Part shown: positions 8,810-21,189 of the stretch, piece by piece | Numbering within the stretch: position 1 is the stretch's first letter | Layout of the letters: every line of letters begins with the position of its first letter | Assembly: GCF_003428155.1 (NCBI RefSeq) | Contig: NZ_QLIR01000004.1 | Span: forward strand, 90,001-122,000 | DNA length: 32,000 nt | DNA from: Fastidiosibacter lacustris | GTDB taxonomy: Bacteria > Pseudomonadota > Gammaproteobacteria > Francisellales > Francisellaceae | Direction of reading: 5' to 3' | Notes under the pieces: model-generated | What the model saw: the letters and a program-made list of their open reading frames with translations, nothing else | What the model was told of the DNA's origin: nothing | The model's database searches: none | Translations under genes and position numbers: made by a program

Positions 8810-10204
8810 ATGCTGATCAAAAATAAACCGGTCACACTCACTTTCTTCATAACTCTCTTTCAAACTATGAGTACAGGAGTGATGTTTAGCTTAACTGTTT
8901 TGTATTTAACTTTATCACTTAATGTCAGTGAGGCAGAGGCATATATGCTTAACACTGCTTTATTCTCGCTATTTTACTGCTTACCGCTTATCTCTGGGAT
9001 GGTTGCTGACAAGTTTTTAGATGCCAAACGTACACTTATTATTGGACAACTTTTTAGTATCGTTGGTTTTTTCACTTTAGCGAGCATGGGCACCAATATG
9101 CTTGTTGTGAGTTTAAGCTGTATTGCCATTGGTGGGGCTTTTTACTTACCTAGCATCTGGAAGCTTTTGCATAGCTGCTTTCCTGAACACAATAGTAAGC
9201 GATCATATTATTTTACCGTTGCCTACATCAGCCTTGCAACAGGAGGGATGATTTCAACTTTTAGCTCTGGATTTATTGCGGATCATTTTGGTTATCATAC
9301 CGCTTTTTATATTGGTGGAATTTATAATGTCATCGCTTTAGTTTTGTTTATTTTATTTCACCGAATTTACCCACGCTCGTCCTATCAGTTTTCTTTAGCT
9401 AAAATCGGCTATAGCGTTTGTATACTTATCCTTACCTTTGCGGCTGTTCATTACCTTATTCAAAGACCAAACACTGCTGCGATGGTTATTTACATTGCTG
9501 CAATTGCACTATTTTTTTACTTTTTATATCTTGCCAAAACTGCCGATAATGCCAATCAAACAAAGGGGATTCTTAAGTTTGTAATTTTATGTTTAATCTG
9601 TGTGACTTACTGGAGCATTGCCACACTGTCGCAAACTAACATTACCTTATTCTCTCAATATAACCTTAATCGTTATATTTTTGGAATTATTTATCCAGCT
9701 GGTTCTGTTATTACTTTTTGGTATATCAGTATGTTTATCTGTGCCATTGCGGTCAGTACGCTATGGTATCGCAATATCAAGCACAATGCCTTTGATTTGA
9801 AATTTTTTATTGGACTTGTTGTCACTGCTATAGCAGGTATCACCATTCCTATCTCGATTGGCTTATCAGCCTCAGGCGCACAGGTTGCATTTTTCTGGAT
9901 CATTATATTTTTCTTTTTCTTGGGTTTTGGAGAAATTCTTATTCATCCAAATGGCAGTGCTGCCGCTGGAGAATATATCACAGAAAAAAACAGGGGATTT
10001 GCACTTGGTGCTTGGGAGTTTTCAAGTGGTTTAGGTGTTGCTATTTCAGGGAAGCTCTCAATACTTACTATTACTGATGATAAGCAAACAAATCTCTTGC
10101 TGAGTAATCAAGCTTATAGTCGCACTTTCCTGTATATCGCGATTATTTGCTTTGCTTTTGGGGTTGTGACATATCTTGTTAATCGGCTACTCAAAACGCA
10201 CTAA
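8810..10204 (+). CDS. POT/PTR2-like MFS transporter (putative di/tripeptide permease), atypical
   Basis: 464 aa with about 12 or more hydrophobic helices. SGMVADKFLDAKRTLIIG resembles PTR2 motif GGxxADxxxGxxxTI, and FTVAYISLATGGMIS resembles FYxxINxGS. The canonical N-terminal ExxERF motif is not visible. Confidence 0.6.
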   Translation: MLIKNKPVTLTFFITLFQTMSTGVMFSLTVLYLTLSLNVSEAEAYMLNTALFSLFYCLPLISGMVADKFLDAKRTLIIGQLFSIVGFFTLASMGTNMLVVSLSCIAIGGAFYLPSIWKLLHSCFPEHNSKRSYYFTVAYISLATGGMISTFSSGFIADHFGYHTAFYIGGIYNVIALVLFILFHRIYPRSSYQFSLAKIGYSVCILILTFAAVHYLIQRPNTAAMVIYIAAIALFFYFLYLAKTADNANQTKGILKFVILCLICVTYWSIATLSQTNITLFSQYNLNRYIFGIIYPAGSVITFWYISMFICAIAVSTLWYRNIKHNAFDLKFFIGLVVTAIAGITIPISIGLSASGAQVAFFWIIIFFFFLGFGEILIHPNGSAAAGEYITEKNRGFALGAWEFSSGLGVAISGKLSILTITDDKQTNLLLSNQAYSRTFLYIAIICFAFGVVTYLVNRLLKTH

Positions 10205-10569: not shown

Positions 10570-11322
10570 ATGGCCACGATTCACACACCTAAACAATATG
10601 CCGAAATTTATAAAATCTTGCAAAAACATGACAACTCCAAGCAAATTATAACCCATATCCAAAACACTATTTTGCCCTATATTGAAAAGCAGTATTTTCT
10701 TGATATTGGTGCAGGAGAAGGCAAAATAACTCAGCATTTTATTTCACAATTTCAAAATAATACAGCGATTGAACCTAACTCTAACTATACAAAAATACTA
10801 CAAAATTTTCCCCAATTGACTGTCATCAACGATATCTTTCAAAACACTTTTCTGTCACACAAGTATAACTTTATTTTATGTTCTCACGTTATGTACCACG
10901 TTGCAGAGCAAGAATGGGAAAGGTTTGTTTTAAAAGCCTATGATCAACTTGAAGAAAAAGGTAGATTGATGTTTGTAGTACCCTCTGACCAAGGTGTGCA
11001 TTATGATAAATGTATCAGCTATAACCCATATTACAAATGCTATAAATTATTGAAAAATATTGCACACAAATATGAGATCCCCTATCAGGTTACAATTGAT
11101 AAAGCATTTTATAATACAGAAACCTTGGAAGAAATGTATCAAATTTGTCGCTTTTCTATCGTTGAAGATAGCTTTAATTATGACATGTACCAACAGTTGC
11201 TTAACAATGGCATAGCTGAATTTGATAGAGATGTGCTAAATTATGCAAAAAGTACAAAAATTAACGATACACTTTATTCACTTGTCATTCATCCTGCTTT
11301 TGTTACCTTATACAAAAGTTAG
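10570..11322 (+). CDS. Class I SAM-dependent methyltransferase
   Basis: Motif I FLDIGAGEGKIT, then an acidic residue at the end of beta2 (AIEPN), then CSHVMYHV. Substrate is unknown. Confidence 0.8.
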   Translation: MATIHTPKQYAEIYKILQKHDNSKQIITHIQNTILPYIEKQYFLDIGAGEGKITQHFISQFQNNTAIEPNSNYTKILQNFPQLTVINDIFQNTFLSHKYNFILCSHVMYHVAEQEWERFVLKAYDQLEEKGRLMFVVPSDQGVHYDKCISYNPYYKCYKLLKNIAHKYEIPYQVTIDKAFYNTETLEEMYQICRFSIVEDSFNYDMYQQLLNNGIAEFDRDVLNYAKSTKINDTLYSLVIHPAFVTLYKS

Positions 11323-11623
11323 CCCATCAATATTGAGAGTCGTTACAAGTCAATTTTCGTTATATTTTACTCTTGTTTTCAACTACCTTGTTAATCCCTA
11401 TTGAAATCAAAACCTCTTGTCTCACACCGTTAACCACGTTAGCCAACAAAACCGTTAGAATGACCCGTTTTAATGACTTGTTGATAGTAAATTTAGTGCA
11501 AAGGCTGTTATGGCTTGTAAAAGGAGAGCAAATAGAAACCAGTAATTTTAGTTAAATTATTACGGTTACTAAGGTGTATAAAATTAATTTATACTATCGC
11601 TGGATTAAATTTTAACATGGATT

Positions 11624-14600
11624 ATGGAAATGGTTATAAAAAAGTATTTTGCATATTTATTGGGGTGGGTTTTTCTTTTATCAGGCTGCGGTGGTAGCGG
11701 TGGCGGCAGTGAGGATGTATCTGCAATTAAAATAAAGCAAGGTATAGCTTTGCCAGATGTGATAAAACAAGATAGTGAAGCAATTGGTATTGTTGAGATA
11801 GGTTATGAAACAAATCGTGATCAATTTACGATTGCAACCAAGAGTGACAGTCAGCGTCTTATGATTGATAAGGATAAGATTAAACTGGAAGGCGAAGGAG
11901 TCAGAATAGCTTGGGACTTGGTTAATGATTCATCCTGTGTTAACAAGGAAAGGCAGTATGTTGAGCGCAATGGTAGTTGTAATTTACCTATTCAGATTAA
12001 CAGTCAAAAGCTCGGTGTTCATTCGATTAACTTACAGGTGACCACGCGTGATGGCAAGACAGCAGAGCAATCATTTAAGATAGAGGTGGTAGAGCCATTT
12101 TCACCTAAGCTTGGTAGCAGTGCTATGATAGTCAATTATCTTGATCCTGTCCTAAATGGTATATATGGTCATAGTGATAGATCCGTTTTGCTATACAATG
12201 CGGGGAATAAATTAAACAATGTGCGCGTTCTGGATAAAAAAACTAAATTAGTGTTACATAGGGCAGTTGAATTAAAAGCCGGTGAATTAAGTAAATTACG
12301 ATTTGATGGACAACTGGAGTTACCTTTTGGTCTGTCTCCTTCATTAGATATTATGGCAGCAAACTTGCGTGAGAATTTCAAAGTGAATTATTTGCCGCAT
12401 GATTGGCTAGCAACGCGTGTTAATCACCTTGCAATTACCAAACCTGGGCAAAGTAAACTTGCATTTGAGGTTTTGCAACCAGGTTTTGAAGTGGTGGAAA
12501 TAAGTTTTGACTTTGAAGGTAAGGGTGTAGCGTTAACTGATAAGCCATTCACCGAAGACGACACATTAGAGTCCAAATTATATAATTTTACTTTCTCAGT
12601 AGCAGATGATGCTTATGGAGCGGGGGACTTGACAGTTACATTGCGTCGTGATGGGCACGATGTGGAATATAAAAGTAAAGTTACTGTTCAACCGATTAGT
12701 TTAAAAGTTGAAGCAGCAGATGAAGTATTACGCGAAGCTGGACAACTTTATACAATAAAGGTTACCAATCAATCGGCATTTAACTGGTCAATTTCACAGG
12801 ATAAATTTGAGCTTGGTGGATTAGCACCTCATGCAATGTGGGATAATACAGTTCTTGATAATTGTCGTGATCTATCTTACTTGGCAGCAGGTGGAAGTTG
12901 TAATTTACAACTAAAATATACTCCTGATGTTAATAACTTGCGTACAGGCAATTATGCGTTGAAGATAAAAGATGATATAAGACTTCCGAAAACGCAAAGT
13001 GTAGATATCAAGGTGATTCAAGGGAATCAGAAGTTGCATGTCTATGCACCTGTAAAGCTGTCTGAAAATGATTATAAACTGGAGATTTTTAATAATGACA
13101 GTAAGAATGTTGATGTCACATTAATTGGTAATAATCTTGATTTTATCACGGCTCAAAATTGTGGTCTTATAAAACAAGATGATAGTATTAAGGTAACAGT
13201 GTCTCAAACAAGCTTATGTACAGTTGAGCTTAGAAAGTCAGATGTCAACACTGAAGCAACATTAGAGTATGACAGTGAAAATGGTAGAGGTAAGTACTAT
13301 TTCTTACAATCAGAGCAGTTATTGTATATCGATGGTAAGGCAGTTGTTGTTTATGATGTCAATAAATATGGAGAATTTATAAGGATTGATGAAAATCAAT
13401 ATCCTGTGAAAATTCAGAAAGTACAAGATATTGTGGCAAAAGAAGATGAGCTATATATTGCAACAGATGTTCCGGGTGTGTTGTATCGCTATAAGGATAA
13501 TACGATAACTGAGTTTATCCATATTCCAGACAATAGTTTTATTCAGCATATTGAAAAGGGTGCAGCAGATGATGTTTTAGTGGCAGTATCTTTTAACCCG
13601 TTTGAGGAGCAAAACAATTTCTGGCAGATTAATTTGCAGACTCGAAACGTTGAGCTAATTGCCAGCTTTTCAGGATATATCAATCGTATTAAAGGAATTG
13701 AAGCAAATGAGTTTCATATTGTTGGTACGGATCTTATCTATAACAATCAGACATCAAATATACTGGTTTTAAAGGTTGATAAAGACAGTAGTAAAAGTGG
13801 TGTAATGATTCCTCCGCTTCCGGTTATTATGCAGAGCGGACCGATATTTGATGTTGCTCACACGAAGGATACTTATTATGCAGCCAGTATTTTTGGTGAG
13901 CATTCTGGATTGATCGAGCTTCCTTATCCTTTGGATGCCAGTAATACTGTGAAAGCGCAAACGGTGGTGATGGACGATACATTTTATAAGGAAGGAGGAT
14001 ATGTATCACAAGTAGATGCAAGTATTGAAGGAGATGCTGTTTATGCCTATGGCTGGCTGAAAGACAATCAATACGTTTTGATGCAAAAGAAACAAGGTCA
14101 AGTTAAGCCTATCCCATTGAGTAGCTATATAAGATACATTGTGCCTATGTCAGATGGGCTATATTACAGTGCAACTGAAAGTAGTGGGAATAATCATTTT
14201 ATTTCTCGCTGGAAGAATAAGGAAGAAGAACAAAAAATTATGAGTCAAAACTTTACTATTTCAACAACAGAAAATGTGTTGAAATTGAAAAGACACCATC
14301 AGGAAGTTGTTTCTTCGAATGCATTTTCGGTATTATTGCCTGCGTCGTTGGAGATAACAGAGCGTAAAGAGCATCTATTACAAGCAAAAGAATTTGTATC
14401 TAGAAATATGGATAGTCATGCAATAGATTATGTTTGGTCAGGAGAGGTGGGGGTGTTTAACCCAGATGCAACAAATCAAGCAAGCATTAACTTGACTGCA
14501 CCAGCTTTTAACCCAAGAGAGAACAATCAATATAATGTTAAGCTTTTAGCAACTTTGGATAATGAACAGCAAGCGCTAGAGACAATAGTAGAAGTACTTG

Positions 14601-17600
14601 TGGATCCAAATCTTAAAGGCAGTGTAGCGATTAGTGGAGATACTGAGGTTACAGAGAATAACGAAGTGACATTGAGCGCAAGCTATAGTGCCCCGAGTGA
14701 TTCACCTGTACGTTTACCGAAAGCGGATGGATATAGCTGGACTGTACCAGCGGGTTGGAGCGTGGTAGGCGCAAGCAATCAAGCGACGCTTACAGTAAAA
14801 GCGCCGAACTGGAGTGCGACTCTTACAGCGGGATCGTTTAGTGTGACTGCGACGGATGATGCGAATATTACAACGGATAGCTCAGTAGCGCATGGTGTAA
14901 CGGTTAAGCATGATACGAACTTAAAAGGCAGTGTAGCGATTAGTGGAGATACTGAGGTTACAGAGAATAACGAAGTGACATTGAGCGCAAGCTATAGTGC
15001 CCCGAGTGATTCACCTGCACGTTTACCGAAAGCGGATGGATATAGCTGGACTGTACCAGCGGGTTGGAGCGTGGTAGGCGCAAGCAATCAAGCGACGCTT
15101 ACAGTAAAAGCGCCGAACTGGAGTGCGACTCTTACAGCGGGATCGTTTAGTGTGACTGCGACGGATGATGCGAATATTACAACGGATAGCTCAGTAGCGC
15201 ATGGTGTAACGGTTAAGCATGATACGAACTTAAAAGGCAGTGTAGCGATTAGTGGCGCGGCTGAGGTGATTGAAAATAACACGGTGACATTAACCGCGAA
15301 TGTAACAAATCTTCCTGCTGGTAGAGAGATTCAAGTGGATGGATATGACTGGAACTTACCAAGTACCTGGAGTGTTGTGGGAGATAAGAATAAAAAGGAC
15401 ATTACTATAAAAGCTCCACGCATGACTTTAGATCAAAATATAAGCAATATAAATGTTGTAGTAGACGCAACGGATAATGCAGGTGTAAGAACATCTTTGG
15501 CTGTGAAGCGAATGACTATCAAGCCAGATCACAACCTTTTGACGGTAGATGCAGGTTTTGGTGATAATGCAATAGAAGGAAGTACGAAGAATTTGGCTGC
15601 AACGGTGAGTGGAAGCGGTACTGCGCCGTATAGCTATCTTTGGACAAACAATCAAGGTATTACTATTACAAATGCAAATCGAGCGTTCTTTGCGATGTTT
15701 ACAGTGCCTATCCTTACAGCTCCCAATGAAGACTACACCTTTACGGTGACGGTAACAGATGCGGTAGGTAGACAAAAGAGTGCAAATGTAACTTACATAG
15801 TAACGCCAGATAACAACCGCTTGCAGGTAAGTGCAGGTACTAATGGTTTTGTACAGGAAGAAATCGAACAAGCGTTGAGTGCAAGCGCAAGTAATGGTAC
15901 TGCACCGTATCAATACAAGTGGACGACAACAGATGGGGTTAGCATTACAAATCAGAACGCCCAAAATGCGACATTTAAGGCACCTACATATAATGCAACT
16001 GGTAATAATCGCTACACATTTAATGTGGAAGTGACTGATGGAGTTGGTAGGAAAAGAACCGCTGTGGTGACTTATGATGTTGAGAAAGTCACAATTAATA
16101 TCACCAAGGTAGTAGCGCTTCCAAGCGTTATGATGAAGGGTGTTAGCTATCCTTTTACTTATGAATTTAAAAATACCTCAAAGGTTGCTATAAAAGGAGT
16201 CCACGTAGAGTATGATGGTAGTTCGGGCGCTGTTACTAATACTGTTTCACATGGCTGTAGAGGGGAGATGGCTATAGGTGGATATTGTGAAGTAACTGGT
16301 GTATTCACACCACGAAATTTACGTACAGCGATGACACGTTTTAGATTGGGATACAATCAAGGTATGGGTAGAAAGTTTGTTTCTTCACTTGATCTAAGTG
16401 CTGTCTACGGTTTAACCACCCCAGTTGCCCCTGTATCAGGCAGTGTCACTTCATCCAGTCAGCAATGGCCGGCTAGACGATTTGAAGAGGCGACTAACAG
16501 TATTGGTCAAGCTTGTAATGATGCGGTATATGATAAATTAACAGGATTGATGTGGAGAAAAGATGGTCGCAATGGCTCGACATCATGGAATGCAACTTGG
16601 CCTACTGGGACAAGTGAAGGATCCACGTGTGGTTATACTGACTGGCGTCAACCTAATCTAAATGAACTGCGTAGTTTGGTGAATTATGGTCATCCAGGAA
16701 CCCCCGCATCATGGTTAAATGCCAATGGGTTTAATAATATTCAAAGTGAGTATTGGACAACTACGGAATATGGTCCTGACAATACTAAAGTGTGGTGGAT
16801 AGATATGACTAACGGTCAATTAAGTGTAGCCGCTAAGAGCAATAGATCTTATGTGATAGCTGTTCGTGAAGAGCGCCCTCCGGTTACAGTTACGACAGTA
16901 ACGCCAATTCCAGAGCAAACGGTTGTGGGTGAGAGCTATCCTTTTAGGTATGTTGTTACTAACTCTGGTGTATCTTTTGCAGTTGGTGCACCTGTATCAG
17001 CTTTAAGTATAACAGGGCAGCATACTGATAATGGGACTGTACAATTAAATTCTGGCAATCGAACATGTGAAGATAATATGGTATTAAACTTCAATCAATC
17101 TTGTGAGGTAAGTGGTGTATTTACGCCATCCACCCCGGGTGTGCAGAATGTCGGCTTTTTAGTAAAATATAATTTAGGTCTAGGTGGTAGGTATAAAAAG
17201 ACGACTAGTACAGTCACCACGGCTAAATCTAAAACCTCCCCAATTGCGCCTCAACCAGATGCAGCTACTTTCCCGAATCATCAATGGCCTGAGGGAAGGA
17301 TTAAATACTTGGGTTTCTGTACTATGATGGGCTCTGGAGGAATCCCTGTATATAGATGGTATGATAACTTAACAGGTTTAACGTGGCACGTGAGTTTTAG
17401 GTCGATTATGTGGCAGGAGAGCAATAATATTAGTAGTATTAGTACTGAGAATAATTGTGGTGCGATGACAGGTTTGCGGTTACCTACCGTAAATGAGCTA
17501 CAAAGTTTAGGGAACTTTGGTTATGCGGGAACTCCTTTTGTATGGTTAACTGATGTCGGGGGCAGTGGTTTGGTTGGGACTTATTGGACAAGTAGCCCTG

Positions 17601-17704
17601 TTGCGCTCTCAAATACTCATGTGTGGGCAGTTGATATGACGAATGGTAAAGTAGTTGAGAAGCTAAAAACTGATTCTGCTTACGTGATACTTGTTAAGGC
17701 TTAA
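11624..17704 (+). CDS. Giant modular surface lipoprotein (2026 aa): Ig/ASH-like modules, 5 PKD-like repeats, 2 x [Ig-like + DUF1566/Lcl C-terminal-like domain]
   Basis: Signal peptide with lipobox LLSG|C (Cys22) followed by a GGSGGGS linker. The beta-sandwich motif (G)SCxLxLx(Y/F)xP / CEVxGVFTP recurs. PKD-like repeats lie around 14609-16090. DUF1566-type domains lie around 16460-16870 and 17279-17701 (WPxxR, LTGLxW, CGYTDWRQPNLNELRSLVNYG, YWT, VWxxDM). Confidence 0.9.
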   Translation: MEMVIKKYFAYLLGWVFLLSGCGGSGGGSEDVSAIKIKQGIALPDVIKQDSEAIGIVEIGYETNRDQFTIATKSDSQRLMIDKDKIKLEGEGVRIAWDLVNDSSCVNKERQYVERNGSCNLPIQINSQKLGVHSINLQVTTRDGKTAEQSFKIEVVEPFSPKLGSSAMIVNYLDPVLNGIYGHSDRSVLLYNAGNKLNNVRVLDKKTKLVLHRAVELKAGELSKLRFDGQLELPFGLSPSLDIMAANLRENFKVNYLPHDWLATRVNHLAITKPGQSKLAFEVLQPGFEVVEISFDFEGKGVALTDKPFTEDDTLESKLYNFTFSVADDAYGAGDLTVTLRRDGHDVEYKSKVTVQPISLKVEAADEVLREAGQLYTIKVTNQSAFNWSISQDKFELGGLAPHAMWDNTVLDNCRDLSYLAAGGSCNLQLKYTPDVNNLRTGNYALKIKDDIRLPKTQSVDIKVIQGNQKLHVYAPVKLSENDYKLEIFNNDSKNVDVTLIGNNLDFITAQNCGLIKQDDSIKVTVSQTSLCTVELRKSDVNTEATLEYDSENGRGKYYFLQSEQLLYIDGKAVVVYDVNKYGEFIRIDENQYPVKIQKVQDIVAKEDELYIATDVPGVLYRYKDNTITEFIHIPDNSFIQHIEKGAADDVLVAVSFNPFEEQNNFWQINLQTRNVELIASFSGYINRIKGIEANEFHIVGTDLIYNNQTSNILVLKVDKDSSKSGVMIPPLPVIMQSGPIFDVAHTKDTYYAASIFGEHSGLIELPYPLDASNTVKAQTVVMDDTFYKEGGYVSQVDASIEGDAVYAYGWLKDNQYVLMQKKQGQVKPIPLSSYIRYIVPMSDGLYYSATESSGNNHFISRWKNKEEEQKIMSQNFTISTTENVLKLKRHHQEVVSSNAFSVLLPASLEITERKEHLLQAKEFVSRNMDSHAIDYVWSGEVGVFNPDATNQASINLTAPAFNPRENNQYNVKLLATLDNEQQALETIVEVLVDPNLKGSVAISGDTEVTENNEVTLSASYSAPSDSPVRLPKADGYSWTVPAGWSVVGASNQATLTVKAPNWSATLTAGSFSVTATDDANITTDSSVAHGVTVKHDTNLKGSVAISGDTEVTENNEVTLSASYSAPSDSPARLPKADGYSWTVPAGWSVVGASNQATLTVKAPNWSATLTAGSFSVTATDDANITTDSSVAHGVTVKHDTNLKGSVAISGAAEVIENNTVTLTANVTNLPAGREIQVDGYDWNLPSTWSVVGDKNKKDITIKAPRMTLDQNISNINVVVDATDNAGVRTSLAVKRMTIKPDHNLLTVDAGFGDNAIEGSTKNLAATVSGSGTAPYSYLWTNNQGITITNANRAFFAMFTVPILTAPNEDYTFTVTVTDAVGRQKSANVTYIVTPDNNRLQVSAGTNGFVQEEIEQALSASASNGTAPYQYKWTTTDGVSITNQNAQNATFKAPTYNATGNNRYTFNVEVTDGVGRKRTAVVTYDVEKVTINITKVVALPSVMMKGVSYPFTYEFKNTSKVAIKGVHVEYDGSSGAVTNTVSHGCRGEMAIGGYCEVTGVFTPRNLRTAMTRFRLGYNQGMGRKFVSSLDLSAVYGLTTPVAPVSGSVTSSSQQWPARRFEEATNSIGQACNDAVYDKLTGLMWRKDGRNGSTSWNATWPTGTSEGSTCGYTDWRQPNLNELRSLVNYGHPGTPASWLNANGFNNIQSEYWTTTEYGPDNTKVWWIDMTNGQLSVAAKSNRSYVIAVREERPPVTVTTVTPIPEQTVVGESYPFRYVVTNSGVSFAVGAPVSALSITGQHTDNGTVQLNSGNRTCEDNMVLNFNQSCEVSGVFTPSTPGVQNVGFLVKYNLGLGGRYKKTTSTVTTAKSKTSPIAPQPDAATFPNHQWPEGRIKYLGFCTMMGSGGIPVYRWYDNLTGLTWHVSFRSIMWQESNNISSISTENNCGAMTGLRLPTVNELQSLGNFGYAGTPFVWLTDVGGSGLVGTYWTSSPVALSNTHVWAVDMTNGKVVEKLKTDSAYVILVKA
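14615..15255 (+). repeat. Intragenic tandem repeat, period 309 bp (103 aa): two copies differ at one base (T14709 vs C15018), and the start of a third, diverged copy follows
   Basis: Base-by-base comparison at a 309-nt offset. The third copy is identical for about 23 nt, then diverges but stays homologous at the protein level to about 15535. Confidence 0.95.
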
Positions 17705-17733
17705 TAAAAATTAATAAATGCTAGGAATATAAT

Positions 17734-18300
17734 ATGAAAAACATTCAGCATAGAATAATAAAAAAAATTGGCTTGCTTTCAACCCTGCTTATTTTCTTGG
17801 GAGTGGCAAGTCAAAGCTTCGCTTATGATGTTGTGATCCAAGCGGATGATGCAGCATTTCGCGGTGATGGACAATGGCCAACCCCTAGGTTTGTAGAGGC
17901 AATTGGAGCAGATGGTGTGCCTTGCTCTAGTTTACTACGTGATAAATTAACGGGTTTGACATGGCGAAAGAATGCTTATGAGGGTCGCACAAATTGGCAG
18001 GGTGCAATGAATTTTGCAGCGAACTTTGCAAAGGATCATCCTATTTCTGCGTGTGGTTATACGGACTGGCGCGTGCCTAATATTAATGAGCTTCGAAGCC
18101 TAGTGAATTATGGCGCTCAAGAGCCAAACATATGGTTAAATGCCAATGGGTTTAATAACTTTCAAGATACTGCTGGTTATTGGACAAGTACGGAATATGG
18201 ACCTGACAAAGATCAAGCCTGGCTCGTGGATATGGGAGAGGGTGGCACTTTTTTCGCTCCTAAGCGCAATGGACGAGCTTATGTAGTGATTATTCGTTGA
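17734..18300 (+). CDS. Secreted single-domain DUF1566/Lcl C-terminal-like protein
   Basis: 188 aa with a Sec-type signal (MKNIQHRIIKKIGLLSTLLIFLGVASQSFA). Motifs are WPTPRF, DKLTGLTWRK, CGYTDWRVPNINELRSLVNYG, YWTSTEYGPD and AWLVDM. AGGAA RBS is present, and the gene starts 29 bp after the giant gene. Confidence 0.87.
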   Translation: MKNIQHRIIKKIGLLSTLLIFLGVASQSFAYDVVIQADDAAFRGDGQWPTPRFVEAIGADGVPCSSLLRDKLTGLTWRKNAYEGRTNWQGAMNFAANFAKDHPISACGYTDWRVPNINELRSLVNYGAQEPNIWLNANGFNNFQDTAGYWTSTEYGPDKDQAWLVDMGEGGTFFAPKRNGRAYVVIIR

Positions 18301-18410
18301 TTAACAACGGTCATTGAGTCATTTGATGATTTATTTTAATTGCTTTGTAAGTAAAAATTGAAACAGAATAAATAGGTACAAAAATCGATAGAGTTTTTAA
18401 GGAATATGCG

Positions 18411-19016
18411 ATGAAAAGCATTCAGCACAAAATAATAAAAAAAATCGGGATTGTTATGACCTTGTCCATGACCTTAGGCATTGGTGAGTATAGCTTTGCG
18501 GCGGCTATCGTTCAAGATGTCAAGCCAGGTGGTATGGGTTTTGGAGGATGGCCAAATCCCAGATTTGAAGATGCAGTTAAGGCAGATAGTACACGTTGTG
18601 CTGACGCAAAAATAGATAACTTAACGGGGTTGATGTGGCAACATAATGCTAGAAATGGTGGACATACTTGGCATCATTTAACGAACGCTGCTACAGGTGC
18701 CAAAACATGTGGTTATACTGATTGGCGTTTACCTGACTTAGGTGAAATGTTAAGTTTAGTGAATTATGGAAGCGCTGGTACACCAAGAGATTGGTTATTG
18801 GGTCAAGGATTTTTTTATGACATTCCAGGGGATGCTTATTATTGGACAAGTACAGCAAATTCGCAAAACAGTAATCAGGCGTGGCTTGTTGATATCATGA
18901 ATGGCAGTACACGAGTACACAATAAGGGTAGTTATGAAGTCGCTACTTCTCCAACAACAAGGTACACCTTTGCCTGGTATGTTCGTGGACCCAAGAATCC
19001 GCATTTGATTTTGTAA
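18411..19016 (+). CDS. Secreted single-domain DUF1566/Lcl C-terminal-like protein (paralogue)
   Basis: 201 aa with signal MKSIQHKIIKKIGIVMTLSMTLGIGEYSFAAA. Motifs are WPNPRF, DNLTGLMWQH, CGYTDWRLPDLGEMLSLVNYG, YWTST and AWLVDI. AAGGAA RBS is present. Confidence 0.87.
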   Translation: MKSIQHKIIKKIGIVMTLSMTLGIGEYSFAAAIVQDVKPGGMGFGGWPNPRFEDAVKADSTRCADAKIDNLTGLMWQHNARNGGHTWHHLTNAATGAKTCGYTDWRLPDLGEMLSLVNYGSAGTPRDWLLGQGFFYDIPGDAYYWTSTANSQNSNQAWLVDIMNGSTRVHNKGSYEVATSPTTRYTFAWYVRGPKNPHLIL

Positions 19017-19214
19017 TTATGTTTATGACGTTTTTTGTATTTAAAGAAGGGGAATATGATCGATAAATGCACACTAGTGATTTGTTTTGCATACTTTTTA
19101 CACAACTATAAACATTTAACAGCATTATTTAGCATAAGCCACCTGATTTACCTAAAATGAACCGCGTATTTACCGATATTGGTCATTATAGGAACTTTAT
19201 AAAGGACAGCTGAC

Positions 19215-20315
19215 ATGACAGATAAAATACCAACAGAAATAAATGCTTCAAAATCTGATATGCTTTCATCAGAAGGCACAATTGATTTATTTCATGACGT
19301 TACCAAACTTATTGAAGAAGCTCGTAATCATGTTGCCAGAGAGTATAATTCAGCTCAAGTGCTACTTTGCTGGCTGATTGGCGAGCGCATCAATGATCGT
19401 TTACTACAGTCCGATCGAGCTGACTATGGTGAAATGGTAGTAAGTTCTTTAGCCGACCAACTTAAAGTGAAGTATGGTAAAGGTTATAGTCGAGCAAACT
19501 TATTTCGTATGATCAAATTTGCTAAGTTATATCCTGATCGCAAGATTGTCTCAACGCTGTCGCGACAATTATCCTGGTCTCACTTTGTGCTTATTTGCGG
19601 TATTGATGATTACTTAAAACGAGACTTTTTTGCTGAAATGTGCCGTGTACAGAAATGGAGCGTTCGAGCATTGCAAAAGCAGATTAATGGAATGCTTTAT
19701 GAGCGTGTTGGTTTAAGCAAGCAACCAGAGGGGGTAATTAAAGCTCAAATTAGCCAACTTAAAAATAACGATGAAATGACGCCAGAGATGACATTTAAAG
19801 AACCTTACTTTTTGGATTTCATTGGTGCTCATTCTTATGCTTCAGAGCAAGAACTCGAAGATTTGATTTTGCAAAATATCACTGAATTCCTGCAAGAGAT
19901 TGGAACTGATTTTTGCTTTGTTTCTAGACAAAAACGTATGAGTACTGGCAAAAAGGATCGGTATCTGGATTTATTATTTTTTAATCGTCGACTGCGCCGC
20001 CTTATTGCCATCGATCTTAAACTCGGTGATTTTGATCCAGCTTATAAAGGGCAGATGGAATGGTATTTGAACTGGCTGGATAAAAATGAACGTCTTGACT
20101 ACGAAGAAAAGCCTATGGGCATTATTTTATGTGCAGGCAAAGATCATGATGATATTGAATATCTTGAAATGGATAAAACCGGCATTCATGTTGCTCAATA
20201 CCTAACAGAATTACCACCTAAAGAAATCTTAGAAGAGAGTCTACGCAAAGCGATTTCAACCGCAAGAGAAACCCATATTAAGCGTCTATTACTAGAGGAT
20301 AGGCGTGATGATTAA
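19215..20315 (+). CDS. YhcG-like PD-(D/E)XK nuclease family protein (DUF1016)
   Basis: 366 aa. The N-terminal helical domain (LSRQLSWSHFVLI...) and the C-terminal core DRYLDLLFFNRRLRRLIAIDLKLG (D...D/ExK) followed by GQMEWYLNWLD are typical of the YhcG family. Confidence 0.85.
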   Translation: MTDKIPTEINASKSDMLSSEGTIDLFHDVTKLIEEARNHVAREYNSAQVLLCWLIGERINDRLLQSDRADYGEMVVSSLADQLKVKYGKGYSRANLFRMIKFAKLYPDRKIVSTLSRQLSWSHFVLICGIDDYLKRDFFAEMCRVQKWSVRALQKQINGMLYERVGLSKQPEGVIKAQISQLKNNDEMTPEMTFKEPYFLDFIGAHSYASEQELEDLILQNITEFLQEIGTDFCFVSRQKRMSTGKKDRYLDLLFFNRRLRRLIAIDLKLGDFDPAYKGQMEWYLNWLDKNERLDYEEKPMGIILCAGKDHDDIEYLEMDKTGIHVAQYLTELPPKEILEESLRKAISTARETHIKRLLLEDRRDD

Positions 20316-20324
20316 ATTAAACTC

Positions 20325-20417
20325 TTACCTTAGTGTGTAATAAGTCTCAAATTCTTGACTATCCATTTTCTCCTCAATATGAGAATTAATGCTTTGACCA
20401 ATGTATTTATTGCTCAT
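20325..20417 (-). pseudogene. Truncated N-terminal remnant of an XRE/HigA-like antitoxin (30 codons)
   Basis: MSNKYIGQSINSHIEEKMDSQEFETYYTLR* preceded by GGAGG. It resembles the MxxKYIGSSFDxFLEEEGxxEE N-termini of antitoxins partnered with RelE/HigB (Gp49-like) toxins. The HTH region is absent, and the ORF ends about 10 bp from the yhcG-like stop. Confidence 0.4.
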
Positions 20418-20496
20418 TTAAAACCTCCATCATACGTTTCTCGCTGATTCCACGATCATTGTTTTTTGTATTTTGAGTTGGGTAGGGATTATTGCT
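20407..20496 (-). pseudogene. Possible decayed C-terminal tail of a RelE/HigB-like toxin
   Basis: The minus strand reads ...PTQNTKNNDRGISEKRMMEVLNEQ*, overlapping the ATG of the antitoxin remnant (ATGAGCAATAA). It is bounded upstream by stops and frameshifts. The similarity is weak and judged by eye. Confidence 0.25.
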
Positions 20497-20602
20497 TCAG
20501 CGAGTGTTTAACACATCCTGTATTACTTCCTCTGCACCGAGTCTAACCCTTTAAGCAGCGATGATTCAGATAGAGAGTTTACTATTGTTAGATTAAGGGG
20601 TA

Positions 20603-20938
20603 TTACGACAATATTACCTTAGAAATTTTGAGGATCTCATCAAGGCATGTTTTGGGGCACGTTTCTATTTTTTCAGCATTTCTTGATTTAAAATCCATTG
20701 AGCGAATCTGAAATGTTAAAATACTGCCTTTTGTTTTACATTTTCCGGGAAGTGTAACTTCAAATTTATTGCTCCGTTGCACACTTGTAATTGGAGCAAC
20801 AAAGGTAAACCCCGTGTGATCGTTAAAAACAGCTTTTGTTAAAACAAGTGCTGGTCTGCGTTTCATTATTTCACGACCAAGGCTTGGATCAAAATCAAGC
20901 CAGATAATATCTCCTTGGTCTGGAATATATTTTTTCAA
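20603..20938 (-). CDS. mazF: MazF/PemK-family endoribonuclease toxin
   Basis: IPDQGDIIWLDFDPSLGREIMKRRPALVLT...FVAPITS follows the PemK pattern. The likely TTG start (20938) overlaps the mazE TGA in a TTGA junction. The track ORF starts at an upstream ATG (20971) inside mazE. Confidence 0.85.
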   Translation of the reverse strand: MKKYIPDQGDIIWLDFDPSLGREIMKRRPALVLTKAVFNDHTGFTFVAPITSVQRSNKFEVTLPGKCKTKGSILTFQIRSMDFKSRNAEKIETCPKTCLDEILKISKVILS

Positions 20939-21189
20939 ATCTCTTTTCCTTTTGGCTTGGCTTGAACCCACTCTTTATCTTCGTCAAGAAGCTTAAAACT
21001 ATCTTTTGGGCTTTCAGCAAGCATTTTTTCTAGACTTAATTCTTCTTTTTTAGGTATCAAAATGATTTTATTATCTTCAACATGGATATCAAGCTTATCA
21101 CCCGTATGCAAGTTGAGAATTTGAAGTATTTTTTTAGGGATGCTCACAATACTCGCACCACCTGATTGTCTAAGTGATAGTGATGACAT
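20935..21189 (-). CDS. mazE: MazE/AbrB (SpoVT)-family antitoxin
   Basis: 84 aa. SGGASIVSIPKKILQILNLHTGDKLDIHVEDNKIILIP is a swapped-hairpin AbrB/MazE motif. GGAGAA RBS is present, and the gene sits immediately upstream of and overlapping mazF. Confidence 0.85.
   Translation of the reverse strand: MSSLSLRQSGGASIVSIPKKILQILNLHTGDKLDIHVEDNKIILIPKKEELSLEKMLAESPKDSFKLLDEDKEWVQAKPKGKEI

Follow-up and report, generated by a model that had tools for sequence, protein, structure and literature searches.

DUF1566 proteins are a published class of DGR targets, typified by the Legionella pneumophila lipoprotein LdtA, and together with DUF823 and Fib_succ_major proteins they make up 'category d' of the DGR variable proteins, with VRs of the CLec2 type (PMC5758913). 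About half of the known DUF1566-class targets are short proteins made up of DUF1566 only, the other half carrying Ig-type extensions; two-target cassettes account for 13% of DGRs, and remote targets at distances above 100 kb from the RT gene have been documented (PMC5758913). Many DUF1566 proteins are not DGR targets, among them L. pneumophila Lcl, whose C-terminal domain (Lcl-CTD, PDB 8q4e) likewise has a C-type-lectin-like fold (PMC11162425). Lcl binds GAGs through Lys369, Lys380, Lys385 and Lys391, and Arg342 is critical for its trimerization; Lcl-CTD has neither lectin motifs nor a disulfide, and the generic role of DUF1566 is unclear (PMC11162425).

The locus described here lies within a 32-kb stretch of DNA (the window) from Fastidiosibacter lacustris, a lake bacterium also able to live inside ciliates. 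It encodes a giant predicted lipoprotein and two small proteins predicted to be secreted, A and B, the three of which carry four Lcl_C (DUF1566) domains in all.

Results

Organization of the locus

An earlier note, made from the letters of this DNA, had described four copies of a domain of about 135 aa on one strand, gaps of 29 bp (giant to A) and 110 bp (A to B) between three genes, and a separate RBS for each small gene. All of this was borne out by reading the sequence (Table 1): the three ORFs are on the plus strand and an AGGA-type RBS (AGGAATAT) precedes the ATG after each gap. Profile scores for all four domains exceed the Pfam gathering threshold of PF07603 (34.9 bits), as expected from the proposed assignment to Lcl_C/DUF1566. 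The motifs WPxxR, D(K/N)LTGLxW, CGYTDWR, YWT(S/T) and (A/V)WxVDM were found where they had been reported, as was the replacement of CGYTDWR by CGAMTGLRLP in copy D2; CEVxGVFTP occurs in the giant at aa 1555 and aa 1827. Compared with D1, D2 is 38% identical, A 53% and B 43%, and every copy contains two cysteines. The genes for A and B are tandem duplicates; a 49-nt repeat with 86% identity, its units 677 bp apart, takes in the RBS as well as the first part of the signal peptide. In the database assembly the giant starts two codons later, at MVIKKY. A promoter and terminator scan, in which counts were at chance level, gave no terminator-like sites above chance between the genes; co-transcription is therefore plausible, and with it co-expression of the giant with A and B. 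No matches were returned when the whole window was scanned for Rfam families and tRNAs.

Table 1. Features of the F. lacustris Lcl_C locus (positions in the 32-kb window).
Feature	Position	Strand	Evidence or remarks
Giant lipoprotein gene, 2026 aa	11624-17704	+	ORF; Pfam Lcl_C x2, K319L-like PKD x4, PKD_6
Signal peptide and lipobox LLSGC, Cys22	11624-11689	+	read from translation
N-terminal ~970 aa (stalk or body)	11690-14599	+	sub-threshold Ig-like Pfam hits only
Three 103-aa PKD-like repeats	14603-15529	+	PKD_6 hits
Two K319L-like PKD domains	15530-16093	+	Pfam PF22352
Beta-rich pre-domain 1, CEVTGVFTP, probably Ig-like	16094-16363	+	sequence, Pfam, AF2
Lcl_C copy D1, internal in giant	16460-16879	+	Pfam 75.5 bits
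VR-equivalent of D1, YWT to domain end	16751-16879	+	aligns with VRs of L004, L002, L005
Beta-rich pre-domain 2, CEVSGVFTP	16901-17179	+	motif reading
Lcl_C copy D2, C-terminal, most divergent	17279-17701	+	Pfam 53.4 bits; tree
VR-equivalent of D2	17582-17701	+	alignment; two SNPs vs second strain (17618, 17686)
Small secreted Lcl_C protein A, 188 aa	17734-18300	+	Pfam 95.7 bits; AF2 and Foldseek
Signal peptide of A	17734-17823	+	n/h/c regions ending SFA, read from sequence
VR-equivalent of A	18178-18297	+	alignment; no SNP vs second strain
Small secreted Lcl_C protein B, 201 aa, C-terminal extension	18411-19016	+	Pfam 72.2 bits; duplicate of A
Signal peptide of B	18411-18500	+	n/h/c regions ending SFA, read from sequence
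VR-equivalent of B	18840-19013	+	alignment; no SNP vs second strain
IMH-like 14-mer in B, GTTCGTGGACCCAA	18981-18994	+	13/14 match to relatives' VR IMH-region GTTCGCGGACCCAA

The export signals claimed for the three proteins, a lipobox in the giant and Sec-type signal peptides in A and B, were recognized in their sequences. In the giant, LLSGC (aa 18-22), which fits the lipobox pattern [LVI][ASTVI][GAS]C, follows a KK n-region and a hydrophobic core, as in a lipoprotein signal; its large homologues carry LLFGC or LLLGC. Anchorage of the protein in the outer membrane is probable, and from its long PKD/Ig-like stalk the binding modules would be displayed at the surface. The first two PKD-like repeats are 98-99% identical and form a 309-bp tandem repeat, one unit of which is missing from a second strain (see below). 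A word-indexed homologue search with the N-terminal 992 aa, at E<=1e-5, gave zero matches, the query itself not being recovered either. The two units formed by a pre-domain and an Lcl_C domain are spaced 831 bp apart. Ig-like folds had been proposed for both pre-domains, and this is weakly supported: the AF2 model of the pre-domain part is all-beta and pre-domain 1 has a weak HYDIN/VesB-type Ig match in Pfam (E 0.052), set against a pLDDT of 50-62 and the lack of any Pfam match to pre-domain 2.

Fold of the Lcl_C domain and comparison with Lcl

The C-type-lectin-like fold suggested for the domain was recovered by structure prediction. The AF2 model of protein A (pLDDT 86) has 8q4e as its top PDB match in Foldseek (E 1.6e-5, TM 0.54/0.64), the next fold matches being snaclecs, with intimin (1f00) and InvE (5n40) also among the matches; the Lcl_C part of the giant's module 1 was modelled with a pLDDT of ~80-90. 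When PDB sequences were searched, the family profile detected 8q4e at E 0.015, while protein A alone gave noise only. The window proteins resemble Lcl in domain family and fold. They differ from it in having two cysteines per copy, as opposed to no disulfide in Lcl-CTD, and in lacking both basic surface charge and collagen-like repeats (no run of at least four G-X-Y triplets was present in the three proteins).

The positions corresponding to the functional residues of Lcl were located by combining an HMM alignment to 8q4e, the alignment of the four copies and the published roles (PMC11162425). Arg342 is replaced by I, L or V, Lys369 by Y/Y/V/N, Lys380 by T/T/G/M and Lys385 by S/V/F/R; Lys391 corresponds to N in D1, D in D2 and N in A, B being too divergent there to align. 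As neither the GAG-binding lysines nor the trimer arginine is conserved in any of the four copies, the GAG binding raised in the earlier note is unsupported, and it was rejected, the domains being moreover acidic to neutral (pI 5.1-7.2). An adhesin of the Lcl type, collagen-like and GAG-binding, was discarded on the same residues and on the missing G-X-Y region. The lectin function proposed there fared no better, for no carbohydrate or Ca motif is common to the copies: a single EPN is found in A (aa 130), a single QPD in a linker of the giant (aa 1877), and a motif scan found no WND in any of the three proteins. A canonical Ca2+-dependent C-type lectin was accordingly set aside as well.

These results weigh on a reading of the locus as a co-expressed lectin system, in which the soluble small proteins would work alongside the giant on host glycans, possibly GAGs, whether as competitors, bridges or primers. 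Common strand, short gaps and the lack of above-chance terminator-like signals between the genes agree with it, whereas the charge of the domains, the lost Lcl residues and the scattered lectin motifs speak against it, as does the fact that Lcl-CTD itself has no lectin motifs (PMC11162425). Taken with the evidence on gene pairing given below, we consider this reading unlikely.

A likeness of another kind links the giant to intimin/invasin-type adhesins, in which a repetitive beta-sandwich stalk presents a CTLD-like head. Anchoring differs (lipobox in the giant, beta-barrel in intimin/invasin), there is no sequence relationship beyond the fold, and the binding motifs are different.

The closest relatives are DGR targets

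The closest non-self homologues of A (P0002, P0003 and P0005, with 47%, 42% and 40% identity) are either a DGR target or members of core-deleted DGR loci. P0003, which aligns with A over 97% of its length, is the VR-bearing target in locus L004. This locus contains a complete DGR: bAvd, TR (589-691) and RT (IGNLTSQ/YCDD), followed by the small Lcl_C gene, with the VR at its 3' end (2801-2903); mismatches between VR and TR all fall at TR adenines. In locus L005, whose RT is 74% identical to that of L004, the upstream target is a 497-aa lipoprotein with an LLFGC lipobox, and 14/14 VR mismatches are at adenines. Both loci are from uncultured Fastidiosibacteraceae-like bacteria. Across ~275 aa, the giant's pre-domain plus Lcl_C module shares 36-37% identity with the lipoprotein targets of L002, L003 and L005 (36% for the last). 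By sequence comparison, then, the window proteins are homologous to bona fide DGR targets.

The layout in these relatives is a large Lcl_C lipoprotein gene followed by avd, TR, RT and the gene for a small secreted Lcl_C protein. A genome collection was scanned once with an RT alignment, in search of a DGR in Fastidiosibacter or Cysteiniphilum, and the best 80 loci by match served for a survey of this layout. Lcl_C ORFs flank the RT gene on both sides in 22/81 RT loci listed, one being long and the other short in 16 of these 22. In six listed loci, Thiorhodospira sibirica ATCC 700588 included, a single TR corresponds to both VRs, the mismatches being 16-25 at A and 0-3 of other kinds. Adenine-limited TR/VR pairs were found in L004, L005, L076, L040, L017, L029 and L039. 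Among the loci listed, the pair of large and small Lcl_C genes recurs across phyla within one RT clade. The earlier note knew of no characterised system with this arrangement and called for a survey of related genomes; such a survey shows that two-target loci of one DGR clade usually combine a large with a small Lcl_C protein, and DUF1566 is an already published DGR target class (PMC5758913). The system is thus a variant of a known one, not a new one.

In a neighbour-joining tree of the domains (88 columns), the small domains of one gammaproteobacterial group make up one orthologous clade and its large domains another, suggesting that the pair has long been kept together. This conservation, the long-short pairing in many of the DGR loci listed and the survival of the pair where the DGR core is lost (L002, L003 and the window) would all suit the lectin system considered above; the pairing, however, may merely reflect the ability of one TR to serve two flanking targets.

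The window locus compares with two known kinds of DGR system. As in the LdtA class, the Pfam domain is C-terminal, the large member is a lipoprotein and the nearest sequence relatives are such targets; unlike in that class, RT, Avd and TR are all missing from the window, variation is neither adenine-specific nor VR-localised, and the domain is present in four copies, one of them internal to its protein. With the two-target cassette, large gene-avd-TR-RT (MutS_I-like tail)-small gene, as seen in L004/L005, in T. sibirica (L076) and in Methylococcaceae MAGs (L039, L040), it shares the order of large gene first and small gene downstream on one strand, export signals on both products and a homologous pre-domain plus Lcl_C module. 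Where the cassette has a retroelement core of 1.5-2 kb, however, the window has a gap of 29 bp; beyond the cassette, it has an extra module in the giant and an extra small gene.

Two relatives have lost their core. In L002, from a metagenome, the stretch linking the large gene to the small one consists of ~28 nt from the start of avd and ~220 nt from the end of RT, and L003, from Cysteiniphilum halobium, retains ~150 nt of the RT 3' end. DNA identity between the large and the small gene is 93% in the scaffold and 78% in the VR-equivalent for L002, and 83% and 49% for L003. In these loci as in the window, large and small Lcl_C genes adjoin with no working DGR between them. L002 and L003 differ from the window in showing avd and/or RT fragments and VR-localised divergence. 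No flanking-gene synteny was found between the window and L002-L005.

Absence of a DGR from the window and stability of the four copies

DGR parts are absent from the window and hypervariation is absent from the copies. The best tblastn match of the L004 RT and Avd to the 32-kb window had an E value of 0.49, and no RT domain was present among the window ORFs of at least 100 aa. In the interval 11000-20500, no TR/VR pair differing only at template adenines was found, the similarities between copies being conserved coding blocks with mixed mismatches. Neither Fastidiosibacter nor Cysteiniphilum occurs among the best 80 RT loci listed, a listing that tells little about these two genera. Hairpins or cruciforms better than those of shuffled sequence were found neither after the four 3' ends nor after the relatives' VRs. 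Pairs of window copies are 50-61% identical at the DNA level in the scaffold and 50-66% in the VR-equivalent, and so their divergence is not VR-localised. K, E and Q occur at VR-equivalent positions of the copies, and these residues are beyond the reach of mutagenesis acting on AAC codons. The IMH-like 14-mer of B, possibly a relic of an IMH, lies over conserved VRGP codons, and its match was not significant in a blastn comparison.

A second strain was available in the Euplotes endosymbiont 'Ca. Nebulobacter yamunensis' (L001), whose genome shares an ANI of 99.38% with that of F. lacustris (PMC9837558). The supplements of that paper mention neither reverse transcriptase nor DUF1566 (PMC9837558). 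The Lcl_C domains hardly differ between the free-living and the endosymbiont strain. Across the four domains 4 SNPs were counted in total, below the genome average implied by the ANI.

The copies might still be live targets on which a DGR located elsewhere in the genome acts in trans. There are precedents for remote targets in Treponema and others, the search for RT and Avd covered the 32-kb window, the 14-mer is kept in B, and 2 SNPs separate the last 90 bp of D2 from the second strain. Nevertheless, VR-equivalents with so little identity to one another could include at most one copy served by any one TR; the scarcity of differences between the strains and the K, E and Q codons point the same way, as does the absence of any entry named Fastidiosibacter among the close homologues of the L004 RT in the matches listed. 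Ongoing diversification is therefore very improbable.

Discussion

The explanation we favor, with a probability of roughly 0.6, is that the locus descends from a DGR target pair, is now free of the retroelement, frozen and enlarged by duplication, and encodes exported binding proteins. The ancestor would have been a two-target DGR set of the DUF1566 class, comprising a large lipoprotein and a small secreted protein, from which the avd-TR-RT core was lost, leaving none of the present copies hypermutated. Ordinary duplication would later have copied the 831-bp pre-domain plus Lcl_C module within the giant and the small gene in tandem. The outcome would be four exported Lcl_C modules of C-type-lectin fold, two ending the 2026-aa lipoprotein and two Sec-secreted as single domains, that is, four fixed binding variants. 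As no avd or RT remnant is left and the flanks are not shared with the relatives, there is no visible scar, and it is from homology and gene order that we infer descent by retroelement loss; the locus might just as well belong to a sister lineage in which the retroelement was never present.

It is conceivable, though in our judgment improbable, that these are ordinary DUF1566 surface paralogues that were never DGR-linked in the F. lacustris lineage, the DGR of the relatives having recruited the family independently. The lack of a DGR remnant and of synteny would be accounted for in this way, as would the age and even divergence of the copies, and there are precedents in the many DUF1566 proteins, Lcl for example, that are not DGR targets (PMC11162425). 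What counts against independent recruitment is the architecture that it has in common with loci of the DGR kind: a lipoprotein combining a Cys-pair pre-domain and Lcl_C and, directly downstream on the same strand, a secreted Lcl_C protein of ~180 aa with a similar signal peptide. Moreover, the cassette is found as a unit in distant phyla, deletion of the core between the two genes is visible in two relatives, and the neighbour-joining tree (88 columns) places D1, A and B with the DGR-linked clade.

Ligand binding would probably involve the last ~40-45 residues of each module, from YWT to the C-terminus, since this is the surface diversified by the DGR in relatives and the one that contains the ligand-contacting lysines in Lcl, where these residues sit in the C-terminal segment equivalent to the VR. 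By analogy, the window proteins would bind through the VR-equivalent face. A host or particle surface is a plausible ligand given the ciliate-associated lifestyle.

A bolder proposal, which we regard as quite unlikely, is that the anchored long and soluble short Lcl_C proteins form a two-component binding device in many phyla, diversified in step by the DGR, and that F. lacustris kept and duplicated the pair once its retroelement had gone. The two might build a hetero-oligomeric head of lectin fold, or the anchored protein might serve as a receptor and the soluble one as its partner or decoy. If this were true, the place of somatic hypermutation would have been taken by four fixed specificities, a small germline repertoire serving contact with the ciliate host.

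A cluster of lectin-like paralogues is hereby tied to a known mechanism, the DGR. Read in this way, the loci compared line up in a short natural series of what becomes of DGR targets after loss of the retroelement, leading from the intact cassette (L004/L005) through scarred core deletion (L002 and C. halobium) to the scar-free, duplicated and evenly diverged array of F. lacustris. That large and small Lcl_C proteins are commonly paired around the RT gene in one DGR clade is a point we did not find stated in the literature, and this frequency makes the question of cooperation between the two targets a testable one. Finally, F. lacustris is one half of a pair of free-living and obligate-endosymbiont bacteria whose genomes are 'almost indistinguishable' (PMC9837558), so that, little as the Lcl_C domains differ between the two, the binding proteins it exports can reasonably be considered candidates for contact with the host.

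The locus and its proteins

Reading frames, together with four Pfam matches to Lcl_C (PF07603, formerly DUF1566), all above the gathering score of 34.9 bits, bear out the four-copy locus described in the earlier note: a giant lipoprotein with two copies (D1 and D2) and two small secreted proteins, A and B. The motifs quoted there are all in place, including the loss of CGYTDWR from D2.

Open reading frames and Lcl_C domains of the locus (window positions)
Feature	Position	Length	Strand	PF07603 (bits)
Giant ORF	11624-17704	2026 aa	same as A and B	
Lcl_C copy D1	16460-16879			75.5
Lcl_C copy D2	17279-17701			53.4
Small A ORF	17734-18300	188 aa	same as giant and B	
Lcl_C of small A				95.7
Small B ORF	18411-19016	201 aa	same as giant and A	
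Lcl_C of small B				72.2

In a four-copy alignment the other copies are 38-53% identical to D1. The proposed export signals are present, as predicted from sequence: the giant starts with a KK n-region, a hydrophobic core and a lipobox (LLSGC), and the signal peptides of A and B are of the Sec type, with SFA as their last residues. The small genes are tandem duplicates, RBS and first codons included (49 nt, 86% identical); the two pre-domain plus Lcl_C modules of the giant (spacing 831 bp) are an old internal duplication. The pre-domains had been called Ig-like; they are all-beta in an AlphaFold2 model, but with pLDDT 50-62 and sub-threshold Ig matches in Pfam the Ig assignment is weak. Pfam places three 103-aa PKD-like repeats and two K319L-like PKD domains in the remainder of the giant and assigns no family to its N-terminal ~970 residues.

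The PKD-like unit is encoded by a 309-bp tandem repeat (14603-14911, 14912-15220 and 15221-15529) whose first two copies are 98-99% identical. A second strain, the Euplotes endosymbiont 'Ca. Nebulobacter yamunensis', has one unit fewer in its assembly and a giant of 1921 versus 2026 aa (start called two codons later), reflecting either copy-number variation between free-living and endosymbiotic strains or short-read assembly collapse. Against this strain, 15 of the giant gene's 24 SNPs are non-synonymous; 14 lie within 164 bp (12432-12595, aa 270-324; 8 amino-acid changes), versus 10 in the other 5.9 kb. At twelve of the 14, one of the two strains has adenine. A search for a repeat partner of this segment gave none; it may be a recombination patch. 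A TTG-initiated 178-aa ORF antisense within the giant gene (15428-15964, minus strand), low in complexity and rich in Cys, Ile, Arg and Thr, is almost certainly spurious.

The genes directly downstream (19215-21189) are those of a YhcG/DUF1016 PDDEXK nuclease and a MazE/MazF (PemK) toxin-antitoxin pair on the opposite strand. G+C is 0.41-0.44 over 14-19 kb versus ~0.35 in the flanks (genome 36.3%), compatible with a horizontally acquired segment.

Related proteins are targets of diversity-generating retroelements

A protein collection lists A under Fastidiosibacter lacustris, and the window presumably comes from the cultivable strain. The best non-self homologues of A are ~180-aa proteins, 40-47% identical. 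For one of these, the small Lcl_C protein P0003 of L004, an uncultured Fastidiosibacteraceae-like locus, the gene order is bAvd, a 103-nt repeat, a 546-aa reverse transcriptase (RT) containing the motifs IGNLTSQ and YCDD, and, directly next, the P0003 gene. The 3' end of this small gene (2801-2903) is matched by the repeat at 589-691, and all mismatches fall at adenines of the upstream copy, the signature of a diversity-generating retroelement (DGR). In the similar locus L005 (RT 74% identical), a 497-aa lipoprotein (LLFGC) ending in Lcl_C lies upstream of avd, and its variable repeat (VR) has 14/14 mismatches at A. At its start (1-80) the L004 contig holds the tail of another VR-bearing target further upstream, 90% identical to the small-gene 3' end including the IMH region (the element at the VR 3' end); L004 is therefore also a two-target DGR. 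The giant's pre-domain plus Lcl_C module is 36-37% identical to the relatives' lipoprotein targets over ~275 residues. DUF1566 is a published DGR target class: 'category d', with CLec2 VRs, accounts for 14% of DGRs and is typified by LdtA, a surface lipoprotein of Legionella; half of the targets in it are short and carry DUF1566 only, and two-target DGRs make up 13% of all (PMC5758913; the class also appears in PMC4159848 and PMC11661182).

IS transposases and a group II intron RT lie around L004, in which the small target gene and the RT stop overlap by 17 nt. RTs of the L004 DGR clade (L004 746-2386 and homologues) have a C-terminal MutS_I-like region (PF01624). This tail, reported for three RTs only (Wu et al. 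2018, PMC5758913), is common among the matches listed of 6342 L004-RT homologues (E <= 1e-10); in many database entries of such homologues PF07603 is fused to the RT ORF.

An RT-alignment scan of a genome collection yielded the best 80 loci, from many phyla, whose six-frame ORFs were searched with an Lcl_C HMM built from our own sequences. Complete Lcl_C ORFs lie on both sides of the RT in 22 of the 81 RT loci so surveyed; in 16 of the 22, a long ORF (at least 330 aa, reaching >1700 aa) is paired with a short one (~140-320 aa). At six checked loci, one of them from the cultured Thiorhodospira sibirica ATCC 700588, the two VRs match one and the same template repeat (TR), mismatches numbering 16-25 at TR adenines and 0-3 at other bases. 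The giant-plus-small arrangement, for which the earlier note knew of no characterised system, is thus how one DGR clade commonly lays out its two targets. Signal peptides occur on both large and small partners. A rough neighbour-joining tree (88 columns) separates small from large domains across genomes in one gammaproteobacterial group; in other groups both partners of a genome cluster together.

Loss of the retroelement in relatives and its proposed loss in the window

Two relatives have lost the core. In the metagenome locus L002, a 609-aa lipoprotein adjoins a 181-aa protein, and the 332 bp between them retain ~28 nt from the start of avd and ~220 nt from the end of the RT gene, on either side of a ~58-nt palindrome; the RT fragment encodes 61 residues identical to the L004 RT. 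The palindrome (9741-9798; CCTACCCCGCGAATT...AATTCGCGGGGTAGG), exactly at the avd-TR-RT deletion junction, may represent a scar of that deletion or else a small mobile element of palindromic type. In Cysteiniphilum halobium (L003) the small gene is still preceded by ~150 nt from the 3' end of the RT. Large and small genes are 93% identical in the scaffold versus 78% from the YW motif to the end in L002, and 83% versus 49% in L003; both loci still bear the footprint of past diversification.

The window copies, in contrast, show no such drop on the VR side: pairs of copies share 50-61% identity over the scaffold and 50-66% over the VR-equivalent segment, so that divergence is not localised. Neither RT nor Avd was found in the 32-kb window by tblastn, nor a TR-like repeat by repeat search, and 29 bp separate the giant gene from A. 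Some VR-equivalent positions code for Lys, Glu and Gln, residues that lie out of reach of adenine mutagenesis acting on AAC codons. The endosymbiont strain's copy of the region (JAMBMW010000006) is 99.5-99.9% identical, with only 4 differences in the four domains (16858, 17618, 17686 and 18078), below genome-wide divergence. Judged from the window and the comparison of the two strains, live targeting by a remote DGR is very improbable.

The only candidate DGR relic in the window is GTTCGTGGACCCAA in B (18981-18994), a possible one: it matches the relatives' IMH region at 13/14 positions, overlaps the conserved VRGP codons and is not significant. No stable hairpins were found 3' of the genes, and flanking genes show no synteny with the relatives' loci. 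A paralogous family never linked to a DGR in this lineage would look similar on these points; set beside the relatives' loci, it seems unlikely. B carries a C-terminal extension (...TRYTFAWYVRGPKNPHLIL; 18975-19016) absent from the other copies. Its VRGP codons, with the bases that follow, look like the relatives' VR end, which goes no further than VRGPN, and the ORF may have been extended by a point change of the stop region.

Fold and comparison with Legionella Lcl

Mature A, modelled with AlphaFold2 (pLDDT 86), has as its top PDB match the C-terminal domain of the Legionella collagen-like adhesin (Lcl-CTD; 8q4e, E 1.6e-5), followed by snake-venom C-type-lectin-like proteins, intimin and Bdellovibrio Bd2740, in agreement with the C-type-lectin-like fold suggested earlier. 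The Lcl-CTD monomer has this fold without Ca/carbohydrate motifs or disulfides, its trimer depends on Arg342, it binds sulphated glycosaminoglycans (GAGs) via Lys369, 380, 385 and 391, and the generic role of DUF1566 is called unclear (PMC11162425). As mapped by profile alignment to 8q4e and the four-copy alignment, Arg342 and the four lysines are replaced in the window copies (Lys391 judged on D1, D2 and A, B being divergent there). The domains are acidic to neutral (pI 5.1-7.2), and none of EPN, QPD and WND is common to them, EPN occurring once in A, QPD once in the giant's linker and WND nowhere. Family and fold thus stand, but the inference of GAG binding or lectin function is not supported. 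A cooperative system of anchored and soluble lectins, as the earlier note envisaged, is compatible with descent from DGR targets, yet rather improbable.

A sequence scan found no collagen repeats in the window proteins. The cysteines of each Lcl_C copy (16460-19016) number exactly two, both conserved in position: one lies near the N-terminal strand, the other in CGYTDWR/CGAMTG. This suggests a disulfide, a feature that Lcl-CTD is reported to lack.

Discussion

We favour, with a probability of about 0.6, the reading that the locus is related to, and most likely descends from, a DUF1566-class DGR target pair, and is now retroelement-free, frozen and duplicated. Such a pair, left without its retroelement, would have been frozen and then duplicated into four copies, encoding an anchored stalk protein with two binding heads and two secreted single-domain proteins. 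Ligand contact is predicted for the C-terminal ~40-45 residues of each domain, because DGRs rewrite that segment in relatives and the ligand-binding lysines of Lcl lie there. That the anchored protein and its soluble partners make up a genuine two-component device for binding, retained as a small repertoire of fixed variants once the DGR was gone, is quite doubtful.

The domain family, its fold and the DGR-target class were already known. The advance is modest: a version of the large-plus-small pair that has four copies, no scar and no variability, deletion intermediates documented in closer relatives, and a long-plus-short pairing around the RT that is widespread.
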